From: Alphaproteobacteria bacterium
GTDB lineage: Bacteria > Pseudomonadota > Alphaproteobacteria > RF32 > CAG-239
Direction: 5' to 3'
Assembly: GCA_045613125.1 (NCBI GenBank)
Contig: JAZLAM010000016.1
Coordinates: 4,699 to 68,698 of the forward strand
DNA length: 64,000 nucleotides
A program made the position numbers and the translations under genes. Positions 12,609 through 50,267 of the stretch are shown in pieces (within the stretch, counting starts at the first letter, position 1; every line of letters starts with the position of its first letter). Under the pieces are notes generated by a model. The model saw only the letters and a list, made by a program, of their open reading frames with translations, had not been told where the DNA came from and did no database searches.

Positions 12609-12682
12609 TGGCTGCTTGACCTGGATTCGAACCAAGATTAACGGAGTCAGAGTCCGCTGTCCTACCATTAGACGATCAAGCA
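12609..12682 (-). tRNA. tRNA-Gln(CTG)
   Basis: Acceptor TGCTTGA/TCAAGCA-GCCA, anticodon loop CT-CTG-AC, GGTTCGAATCC T-arm, 74 nt. Confidence 0.97.
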
Positions 12683-23269: not shown

Positions 23270-23890
23270 TTACAATTTAAAATACCAAAATAAAGCCATT
23301 TGGTCAGTAGCACCTCGTTTATCTGCTATAGTACACACCTTTGTAGCTCTTGCTACCGAGAAAGGTGCAGGATAGTTTTTATCACCTGTTATTGCAAAAT
23401 TTTCGGTTGCAGTTTTCCAATCGTATCCACCTGTCGATGGTGCTCCTCCCCAAAAATCACCACCCATGCCGTATAAATCTGTTCCCCAATCTGCTGTTAA
23501 CATGGTTACACAAACATCTTTTGGTATGTTGTTCATTGATATCATAAAAATATTATCTGATTTTACAATTTCACTCCCCAAATAAGTTTTTGAAAAAGAA
23601 ATCTGACCACCCCAAAAATGCTCAGGATAGTCAGAATCTTTAGTTTTATACATTTCTGAAGGAACCAGACCCATCTTTTTTATATTTTCATTATTTAATC
23701 CGTCTGTTGTTCCTTGCACACCAAAAGACGCTTGAATATTTGCTATAATATGTGTCATTTGATCGGAAAATTTATTTACCTTATATTTATGCATGGCTTT
23801 AGAATAACCGGCTATACCTCCAACGGATAAGACACCGATGATGGCCAAAACACCAAGCATTTCTACCATAGAACGACCACTTTGGTTCAT
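23270..23890 (-). CDS. Prepilin-like protein A (class III signal peptide-like)
   Basis: MNQSG|RSMVEMLGVLAIIGVLSVGGIAGY with E5 and hydrophobic helix; start ATG 23890 after AAGGA. Confidence 0.85.
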   Translation of the reverse strand: MNQSGRSMVEMLGVLAIIGVLSVGGIAGYSKAMHKYKVNKFSDQMTHIIANIQASFGVQGTTDGLNNENIKKMGLVPSEMYKTKDSDYPEHFWGGQISFSKTYLGSEIVKSDNIFMISMNNIPKDVCVTMLTADWGTDLYGMGGDFWGGAPSTGGYDWKTATENFAITGDKNYPAPFSVARATKVCTIADKRGATDQMALFWYFKL

Positions 23891-23917
23891 ATTTTCCTTT
23901 ATCCTTATATTCAAAAT

Positions 23918-24120
23918 AAAAACCCACTTTATAAAAAGCGGGCGGATGTTCGAAAACCGTATAATCGCAAACGGCTTGGCTTATTCAAGCCTTACGCTCT
24001 TATTTAGCCGACATCCGTCCACATAAAGACTAATGTCGGCATAATTATTTTTAGTCGTTTATGCTTGACGACTGCGATTATGAAGGGTTTCGACGCCCTA
24101 GGTACAAAAACCTTGCACCC
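23918..24120 (-). ncRNA. Structured leader A: C4/CI-like antisense RNA module plus terminator
   Basis: Homologous to 32792-32990 with compensatory changes; core closed by GGACGGATGT/ACATCCGCCC (23940-24020); terminator CCCGCTTT..AAAGTGGG-TTTTT. Confidence 0.8.
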
Positions 24121-32756: not shown

Positions 32757-32785
32757 TTTACATCATTCGAGTTTTATTTTATATT
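32757..32785 (+). promoter_or_regulatory. sigma70-like promoter for leader B
   Basis: TTTACA-N17-TATATT places the TSS at about 32792, the first hairpin. Confidence 0.6.
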
Positions 32786-32791
32786 CATCTC

Positions 32792-32990
32792 AAATACGAA
32801 AATTTCGTATTTAGGGCGTCTAAACCCTTTCATAGGTAGTCTGATAGCATAATGACTATAAATAATATGCCGACTTCTGTCATATAGGCGGATGTCGGTT
32901 GAATAAGGCTCAAAGTCAAATAGACCGAGCTGTTTTACCTATGAACGGTTTTAGAACATCCGCCCGCTTTTTTACAAAAGTCGGGTTTTT
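32792..32990 (+). ncRNA. Structured leader B: C4/CI-like antisense RNA module plus terminator
   Basis: 78-nt core closed by GGCGGATGT(32887-95)/ACATCCGCC(32956-64); loop TACCTATGAA is complementary to upstream TTCATAGGTA; terminator 32963-32990. Confidence 0.8.
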
Positions 32991-33017
32991 GTTTTTAAGA
33001 CAAAGATGGAGAAAAAT

Positions 33018-33614
33018 ATGAATCAAAGTGGCCGTTCGATGGTAGAAATGCTTGGAGTACTTGCGATAATTGGAGTTTTAAGTGTCGGTGGCATTGCCGG
33101 ATATTCAAGCGCAATGTATAAATTTAAGATTAATAAAACTATTGAATACATATATCATGTTGCACAAAACTTAAAAAATCTCTGCGCAAATGATGCTTGT
33201 GAAACATCATTAATGTGTAGCCAAGATAACTATGCTCCTTATCAAAGAGAAGGATGTTCTGCTTTAAAAAAATTAAATTTAGTCCCCGATGATATGTGGA
33301 ATCAAACCGCCGAATATCTTGTTACACCTTTCAACACCCCTGTTAATATAAGTTTTAGCTCTGAAACAATAAGTTTTTTATATCGTAATGTTCCTAAAGA
33401 TCTTTGTATTGCCTTAAGTTCCTTTAACCATGAATTCTTTATATCTGGCACAAAATATTTTTCTATAGTTCCAAGCCTCTACTCTTGCAGTGCTTATTCA
33501 AAAGAATATGGTGCTGAAAGTGAAGCTCCTGAAGAATATTGGCAACCTTTATCTTTTGAAAAAATATCAGAATGTTGTGAATATGAATATAAAGAACTAC
33601 TTTTAGTATTTTAA
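33018..33614 (+). CDS. Prepilin-like protein B
   Basis: MNQSG|RSMVEMLGVLAIIGVLSVGGIAGYS identical to paralog A; Cys-containing variable C-terminus; GGAG RBS 33008-11. Confidence 0.85.
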   Translation: MNQSGRSMVEMLGVLAIIGVLSVGGIAGYSSAMYKFKINKTIEYIYHVAQNLKNLCANDACETSLMCSQDNYAPYQREGCSALKKLNLVPDDMWNQTAEYLVTPFNTPVNISFSSETISFLYRNVPKDLCIALSSFNHEFFISGTKYFSIVPSLYSCSAYSKEYGAESEAPEEYWQPLSFEKISECCEYEYKELLLVF

Positions 33615-50193: not shown

Positions 50194-50267
50194 GCGGGTA
50201 TAATTCAATGGTAGAATGAGAGCTTCCCAAGCTTTTAATGCGGGTTCGATTCCCGTTACCCGCTCCA
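50194..50267 (+). tRNA. tRNA-Gly(CCC)
   Basis: GCGGGTA/TACCCGC-TCCA acceptor, anticodon loop TT-CCC-AA, GGTTCGATTCC. Confidence 0.97.

Follow-up and report, generated by a model that had tools for sequence, protein, structure and literature searches.

A C4/CI-like leader RNA family with copy-specific pairing codes upstream of surface-protein genes in gut Alphaproteobacteria

Two prepilin-like genes in a 64,000-nt window of contig JAZLAM010000016.1 from an Alphaproteobacteria bacterium (the window being the whole stretch of DNA analysed) are each preceded by a structured leader, here termed copy A and copy B (Table 1). The two leaders belong to a large structured RNA family outside Rfam, carried by uncultured gut Alphaproteobacteria of people and animals (as judged by record titles), in which a conserved RNA scaffold is combined with a short, fast-changing and self-matched address peculiar to each copy in the cell, a rare arrangement. 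The family occupies a fixed position and orientation, has two folds demonstrated by covariation, and carries codes that are both unique and specific. The best reading of these observations, to which we give a probability of about one half, is that each leader is a self-addressed C4/CI-like switch for a surface-protein gene, in which two upstream sites, a and b, are matched by elements a' and b' of a core further down the same transcript.

Alternative folds and address codes

Leaders A and B can be aligned end to end, from the promoter region through the start codon, and each contains, in the order and at the positions given in a first-pass annotation of this DNA, every element which that annotation had named, including the complementarities a/a' and b/b' and a 5' hairpin (H1) whose sequence differs between the two copies while its pairing is retained. 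Common to both are an a-hairpin, AGGGCGTC(G/T)AAACCCT, that bears site a, a conserved GCCGAC strand (anti-P1) between hairpin Px and the core, and a core of 78-80 nt closed by helix P1 (GG(A/C)... GGATGT / ACATCCGCC). The terminator scan called the terminator of copy A and left that of copy B uncalled because its stem is bulged. Conservation was assessed on 70 full copies, drawn from 71 relative loci and the window's own genome (two short matches among 72 nhmmer matches, L029 and the second in L070, were excluded, and L028 had no nhmmer match); in most of these a CTTTAC-like -35 element lies at a constant distance (by eye).

When the whole leaders A and B are folded, a pairs with a' and b with b' in cis (z = -6.3 and -5.8), and none of 200 shuffles was as stable. 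Covariation of both helices had been proposed as a check on the first-pass annotation, and double changes are present in both among the 70 copies. In their alignment (A2) a:a' is 96.3% paired, with 13, 28 and 29 double changes at its three variable positions, while b:b' shows double changes at all seven pairs, with all four Watson-Crick types represented. Helix Px (41-47/60-66 of A2) is 92.1% paired with double changes in 5 of 7 pairs, and the inner P2 helix also covaries. The whole A2 structure is 93.0% paired as against 29-46% with the partners slid, a value reached by none of 500 shuffles, and RNAalifold arrives at this cis fold without a structure being supplied, 23 of 38 pairs being compensated. 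All 70 leaders have this fold, termed closed, as their energy minimum, and forcing P1 to form costs a mean of 18.3 kcal/mol.

In the closed fold the a-region pairs with a' and additionally with ACAUCC of the P1 3' strand, so that both P1 strands are held. The core by itself folds as P1, P2 and P3, positioning b' in the P3 loop and a' in the junction. P1 is nearly invariant in the main family and covaries in divergent lineages (by eye); between two coexisting subfamilies it shows double changes in 4 of 9 pairs (A5, model without P1). Duplex energies follow the same partition (degenerate copies L214 and L222 left out, together with L212 and L226), the anti-P1 strand pairing with the P1 5' strand at -17.9 kcal/mol within a subfamily versus -7.5 kcal/mol across, and the P1 3' strand with the P1 5' strand at -11.4 versus -4.6 kcal/mol. 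Since the P1 5' strand has two conserved partners, the leader RNA has two mutually exclusive folds, closed and open, both supported by covariation.

It is the RNA of the coding-direction strand that is conserved, as follows from a G-U pair conserved in 67 of 69 rows and from covariance scores of 17.1 bits on the reverse strand versus 145.3 bits forward. The same two observations bear on the idea that the element is a DNA-level repeat, either a mobile promoter cassette or a recombination site, with a/a' and b/b' working as inverted repeats in DNA. Such an element would be multi-copy with a conserved scaffold, as this one is, and relatives of sRNA-Xcc1, the nearest known family (see below), are carried in integron cassettes according to one report (bioRxiv 10.1101/2025.06.18.660453). 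However, the tolerated G-U pairs amount to A-C mismatches on the other strand, the reverse strand is barely recognised by the model, the direction is fixed relative to the promoter-like site, the terminator and the next open reading frame (ORF), and the flanks are housekeeping genes; we consider a DNA-level function exceedingly improbable.

A purely cis-acting leader must be taken more seriously. In this case a:a' and b:b' would be long-range helices alternating with the P1 fold, the core would never act in trans, and the leader might be an attenuator, a protein- or ligand-sensing element or an RNA stabiliser. The universal minimum-energy cis fold and its prediction by RNAalifold agree with this, and one strand with two alternative partners is the usual mark of a cis switch. 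Likewise, no orphan targets were found, the only cores lacking a and b are two degenerate ones, and a general downstream target was not found in the 70 copies. Arguments against a cis-only role, the codes among them, are given next.

The first-pass annotation had assigned copy-specific address codes to both sites. This is correct for b, which is 7-15 nt long, has its own version for each copy within one genome and is compensated in b'; it does not extend to a, which exists in about ten variants, with several copies of one genome having the same one. Cognate a/b pair with b'/a' at -19.9 +/- 3.1 kcal/mol and non-cognate combinations from the same genome at -9.5 +/- 3.0 kcal/mol. The best partner was the cognate one for all 60 targets. 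In the code sets of two single genomes (excluding the reverse-strand shadow L212 and the partial copy L226, and, from that of G018, three matches of covariance model R1: C43, C51 and C1) it was the cognate one for 26 of 26 in genome G018 and 25 of 28 in genome G008, where the three misses comprise one marginal case and two degenerate copies that lack a and b. Of 703 same-genome pairs, just 9 have b alike at 6 or more of 7 positions, and in one of these a is also alike. Two G018 pairs, L231/L237 and L236/L238, have identical b and different a, as if a served there as a second address digit.

Paralogous copies indicate how rapidly b turns over. Same-genome paralogs with scaffold identity of at least 95% (n = 4) share 36% of b versus 82-100% of unpaired linkers and loops, whereas for scaffold pairs of equal similarity drawn from different genomes (n = 6) the figure for b is 88%. 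Paired b thus changes faster than the unpaired linkers, and the turnover is therefore not neutral drift. From these alignments it points to selection for distinct codes, or to homogenisation of the scaffold by gene conversion with the matched b/b' protected. For the cis-only leader this is a difficulty, as neutral compensatory drift predicts that paired b should be the slower, and the same-genome pairs show the opposite; should the address be read in cis alone, the faster turnover of paired than of unpaired bases would still need explaining. Nor would such a leader account for codes that are almost never repeated within a genome, or for b' in a hairpin loop, a' in a junction and a compact core with its own terminator, which is the build of an antisense RNA. 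In addition, no conserved junction resembling a ligand pocket was identified, and the terminator and the ribosome site are contacted by neither fold. On balance a leader confined to cis is possible and somewhat unlikely.

Downstream genes and spread of the family

A co-oriented ORF of at least 60 aa lies downstream in 68 of the 70 copies, its start mostly 45-70 nt past the P1 3' strand (range 14-80), and the intrinsic terminator is located ~15-35 nt ahead of the ribosome site. The initial tie to pilin paralogs proved too narrow: by simple N-terminal rules, prepilin-like products account for 24 of the 68, products with an N-terminus of signal-peptide, lipobox or membrane type for 36, and other kinds for 8. 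Pfam domains among them include OMP_b-brl (9), PilS (5), Chlam_PMP (4), OmpA_membrane (4), Opacity (3) and Bundlin (3), with EcoRI methylase, Mrr, GT29 sialyltransferase and HTH_3 as singletons. The downstream classes are pilins, outer-membrane protein (OMP) beta-barrels, Opacity and OmpA-like proteins, Pmp repeats and lipoproteins; the leader is associated with surface and secreted-protein genes generally, beyond pilin paralogs. Gene classes of these kinds, those of the EcoRI-like methylase, the Mrr-like nuclease and the GT29 sialyltransferase included, are often on/off-variable in host-associated bacteria.

The covariance model finds exactly three copies in the window's own 1.44-Mb genome. 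The third, on a different contig from A and B (locus L071; genome G000, contig C24:46402-46191, - strand) lies ahead of an OMP beta-barrel-like gene (MKKTLLLAGIATFFAFSVNAQ...) and has the codes CTAGAAA/TTTCTAG for a/a' and ATCCAAT/ATTGGAT for b/b'; its ortholog L025 in genome G005 has a different b, compensated. By BLAST with leader B, 29 of 61 related genomes gave a match; 36 of the 61 belong to the same family, and 26 of these matched. Among 151 genomes sampled from the class, the window's own counted, 11 have a match to model R1; among 150 other genomes from a sample of the phylum there is none. In five related genomes R1 gave 29 (G008), 29 (G018), 8, 6 and 4 matches, of which two in G008 (a weak reverse-strand shadow on L212 and the partial L226) and one in G003 (a reverse-strand shadow) are not separate full copies; among the R1 matches listed, all but 2 cover the whole model. 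There are thus up to ~29 leader copies per 1.5-1.9 Mb genome.

An exact-pattern scan of one genome per species yielded at least 120 stretches. By record title, nearly all of the pattern matches listed belong to uncultured Alphaproteobacteria or 'Azospirillum sp.' and derive from the guts of humans, ruminants or other animals. High-GC matches L075, L085, L088, L101 and L099 were ruled out as chance matches within coding sequence. Matches also occur in records titled Eubacteriales, Bacteroidaceae and Lachnospiraceae (among them L076, L087 and L092), nine stretches being in one 'Eubacteriales' bin (L072, L084, L093, L100, L115, L118, L128, L138 and L141). L076, from a record labelled Bacteroidaceae, and L092, from one labelled Lachnospiraceae, are AT-rich true copies, and the taxonomic labels of these carrier bins look wrong.

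Genome G008 also contains a second subfamily (L215-L225), whose P1 is GGCTGGAAGG/CTTCCAGCC with a matching anti-P1, TACCTTC; at least one of its copies precedes a prepilin-like gene. Two degenerate G008 copies (L214:79-252 and L222:601-742) keep the core, with unrelated sequence standing where a and b would lie upstream of it; in L222 P1 has also decayed.

Mode of action

In the self-addressed switch that we favour, each copy would form one transcription unit comprising a sigma70-type promoter, H1, a and b, Px, the anti-P1 strand, the 78-nt three-helix core and the terminator. In the closed fold a is bound by a', continuing over the P1 3' strand, b is bound by b', and the P1 5' strand is held by anti-P1. 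In the open fold the core closes on itself (P1, P2 and P3), exposing a' and b' and leaving a and b free. Core RNA would be freed by termination, perhaps also by cleavage at the GGA/GGG start of P1, and would use b' and a' to bind sites a and b, exclusively on newly made transcripts of its own locus, preventing them from self-closing and so setting read-through, processing or stability. The unique b, refined by the few a codes, would prevent cross-talk among up to ~29 units per cell. Action in trans, the processing step and the fold corresponding to ON are what we infer beyond the structures themselves; that the core may act on its own transcript is suggested by analogy with P4 CI RNA on seqA and with the short form of IsrK on its own long form.

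Several observations weigh against this switch. A general a2/b2-type downstream site is absent, the cognate combination having a median rank of 27 of 70 and a rank of 2 or better in 7 of 70 copies; in the downstream 110 nt of the 70 copies, cognate energies are -9.56 kcal/mol versus -8.86 kcal/mol for non-cognate ones. Neither the terminator nor the 70 nt that follow is complementary to H1, Px or anti-P1 in a copy-specific way (median ranks 29.5-38 of 70). With neither pairing to the terminator nor a downstream site, the physical link from fold to gene output is missing. Moreover, the terminator hairpin forms both in the closed fold (all examples viewed) and in the forced open fold (3 of 4); over all 70 copies the forced open fold has fewer terminator pairs (mean 5.0), and a general competitor was not found. 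The closed fold is far more stable, so an RNA acting in trans would be confined to the brief time before a' and b' are transcribed. The sharing of a by many copies per genome means that a adds little specificity. The pattern among paralogs could be explained by gene conversion with purifying selection on b/b', with no need for action in trans. Two metatranscriptome runs (0.05 of sampled words each) weigh neither way: their contigs cover only 32887-32911 and 33517 onward, not the leader.

Two candidate pairings between the upstream region and the terminator were set aside. In copy B the freed anti-P1 strand can pair with the terminator 3' strand; as a general antiterminator this was rejected, since the terminator sequences of the other copies differ and the competition is peculiar to copy B. 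The second candidate, GGGCG of the a-hairpin bound to the CGCCC that opens the terminator, was dropped because only a few divergent copies hinted at it by eye and others lacked it. In the RNA and DNA assemblies, position 32911 is joined to 33517 (605 skipped) in a single RNA contig (X20) and a single DNA contig (X1); the shorter arm has just 25 letters, so the joint is probably an assembly or repeat effect.

In copy B, b' and its flank (32933-32952) are complementary to 33029-33047, the G-R-S-M-V-E codons of its own gene, in a duplex of 15 pairs with one internal loop (-18.1 kcal/mol) that is the best of 70 effectors; the ortholog L002 retains the coding-region duplex at -14.7 kcal/mol and also ranks first. 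These duplexes would suit ordinary trans-acting C4-type small RNA (sRNA) genes, with b' and a' hitting other mRNAs or the downstream coding region and the upstream a/b serving as a decoy that keeps the precursor inactive until processing. For downstream ranks of 2 or better about 3 copies are expected where 7 were found, and C4 and sRNA-Xcc1 are described as trans-acting (PMC5320573; Chen et al. 2011, by its title). Yet across the copies the downstream energies of cognate and non-cognate combinations are nearly equal, as is reflected in the median rank, and independent sRNA genes would not need a fixed orientation and spacing to the next gene. We regard independent sRNA genes of this kind as very unlikely.

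The self-addressed switch could go further, each unit being a heritable, RNA-only ON/OFF switch in which free core forces the open fold and so makes more core. In one state the core would capture a and b of every new transcript of its own locus; in the other, transcripts would lock shut and no core would be released. This extension is doubtful. Were it true, a clonal population would show many combinations of surface proteins without any DNA change, the varied genes being pilins, porins, adhesins, lipoproteins and even restriction-modification or glycosyltransferase genes, and a phage-type RNA immunity would have become phase variation. If the address is read in trans at all, the family would offer dozens of ready-made orthogonal riboregulators, of interest to synthetic biology, and a new route to surface variation in the gut.

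Known RNAs and features of the window

The architecture is C4/CI-like, as the first-pass annotation had recognised: a three-helix core of ~78 nt has b' in a loop and a' in a junction, and both targets lie upstream on the same transcript. The scan with the Rfam C4 model which that annotation had proposed, on the other hand, gave 15.4 bits for copy A (cut-off 45) and nothing for copy B, and other C4-type models gave no match at E <= 10. No family of Rfam 15 reaches its cut-off on the leaders of the window, of seven pattern-scan loci or of 20 relatives, and C4 has no match at E <= 10 in these 20 relatives. The nearest family is sRNA-Xcc1 (cut-off 53), aligned over its full length (1-87) with 26.6 bits for B and 33.5 bits for A, and with 26.2-37.5 bits in 18 of the 20 relatives, the other 2 being without a match. 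In these alignments P1, P2 and P3 are in register, at scores too low to separate homology from convergence. With sRNA-Xcc1 and C4 both below their cut-offs, the leader core is by score a member of neither. A literature search turned up no description of the leader family.

The leaders share with C4 (P1/P7, RF01695) a ~77-78-nt core closed by P1 with two inner hairpins, and specificity that depends on code changes of a few bases; with C4 and c4-a1b1, a motif listed by Weinberg et al. 2010 (PMC2864571), they share a' and b' recognition elements matching an upstream a and b on the same transcript. GGW is reported at the RNase P site of C4 and of the Acinetobacter baumannii copies (PMC5320573), and the leader P1 likewise begins GGA/GGG. 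In contrast to C4, where a2/b2 lie over the ribosome site, the leaders have no general downstream site, copy B being an exception with one inside the coding region. C4 belongs to a phage or prophage immunity region whereas the leaders are flanked by housekeeping genes, and, unlike C4, the leaders occur in up to ~29 copies per genome with a hypervariable, unique b of 7-15 nt and include within the unit an anti-P1 strand and a terminator that abuts P1. Because the terminator abuts P1, a free CCA-like tail is not evident.

Three helices and a C-rich tail followed by a U-run are shared with sRNA-Xcc1 (RF02221), members of which likewise precede a protein-coding gene, namely symE in integron cassettes and a gene for an ORF6N protein in APSE phages. 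Known members are reported from Xanthomonas, Xylella and APSE phages and lie in integrons, islands and phages, whereas the leaders are from gut Alphaproteobacteria with chromosomal flanks. Upstream a/b sites and self-addressing, both present in the leaders, are not mentioned in the available portions of the sRNA-Xcc1 descriptions.

Like the leader core, P4 CI RNA is made from the leader of the operon it controls and pairs with a site upstream of itself, which gives premature termination (PMC4825925). It differs in having the downstream site seqC as well and in forming one system per phage, where the leaders have as a rule only upstream sites and form dozens of orthogonal units. In the leaders an intrinsic-terminator-like hairpin follows the core. 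IsrK belongs to the Rfam C4 clan. In the Salmonella Gifsy-1 prophage there is partial read-through at the terminator of this sRNA; its long form can adopt either of two structures and is a target in trans of the short form (PMC4825925). IsrK differs from the leaders in pairing with downstream orf45 sequence, controlling translation and being single-copy and prophage-borne. The Group 1 C4-like sRNAs of A. baumannii resemble the leaders in having many chromosomal copies per genome with a variable recognition region, and are apparently processed from longer transcripts (PMC5320573). They differ in that they match the Rfam C4 motif, and the available text of that paper mentions neither self-complementary upstream sites nor a fixed place before surface-protein genes (PMC5320573), such as the leaders have. 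Overall the leaders would work like C4, CI and IsrK systems without a downstream target or a phage context, to which they add the anti-P1 strand, the hypervariable b and high copy number.

Table 1. Positions of the leader elements and prepilin-like genes in the window
Feature	Position	Strand	Details
Copy B leader	32757-33017	+	precedes prepilin-like gene
Copy B promoter-like TTTACA-17-TATATT	32757-32785	+	10/12 matches
Copy B 5' hairpin H1	32792-32812	+	sequence varies among copies, pairing retained
Copy B a-hairpin	32813-32828	+	AGGGCGTCTAAACCCT; site a TCTAAA = 32819-32824
Copy B site b	32829-32838	+	TTCATAGGTA; copy-specific code
Copy B hairpin Px	32838-32857	+	covarying helix
Copy B anti-P1 strand	32869-32881	+	GCCGACTTCTGTC; alternative partner of P1/P2 5' strands
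Copy B core	32887-32964	+	78 nt; sRNA-Xcc1 26.6 bits over 32886-32973; folds alone as P1/P2/P3
Copy B P1	32887-32895 with 32956-32964	+	GGCGGATGT / ACATCCGCC; closes core
Copy B P2	32896-32927	+	
Copy B P3	32928-32950	+	
Copy B b'	32936-32945	+	TACCTATGAA; within P3
Copy B a'	32947-32955	+	TTTAGA = 32950-32955
Copy B terminator-like hairpin and T-run	32963-32996	+	overlaps final two P1 bases
Copy B GGAG	33008-33011	+	ribosome site before ATG 33018
Copy B gene, prepilin-like	33018-33614	+	MNQSG/RSMVEML...; PilS N-terminal domain 21.7 bits, cut-off 22
Copy A leader	~24150-23891	-	precedes prepilin-like gene; elements run 24120 down to 23913
Copy A H1	24100-24120	-	5' hairpin
Copy A a-hairpin	24084-24099	-	
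Copy A site b	24073-24081	-	
Copy A hairpin Px	24053-24073	-	
Copy A anti-P1 strand	24028-24040	-	
Copy A core	23941-24020	-	sRNA-Xcc1 33.5 bits, C4 15.4 bits
Copy A P1	24011-24020 with 23941-23949	-	
Copy A b'	23961-23969	-	
Copy A a'	23950-23958	-	
Copy A intrinsic-terminator-like hairpin and T-run	23913-23942	-	9 pairs, 4 G-C, then TTTTATTTTG
Copy A gene, type IVb-like prepilin	23270-23890	-	Bundlin 39.4, PilS N-terminal 29.5 bits, both above cut-off

Both prepilin-like proteins of the window begin MNQSG/RSMVEML. They group with type IVb pilins, and their mature parts are only ~35% identical; a longer ORF of the copy B gene begins at 33006. The flanks of A and B are chromosomal-looking housekeeping genes by Pfam (AlaRS, TspO, RecA, NrdD, L35, L20 and PheS), in line with the earlier remark that no phage genes are adjacent. 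The sole Rfam matches at gathering score in the window are tRNA genes at 12612-12682 (- strand) and 50194-50264 (+ strand).

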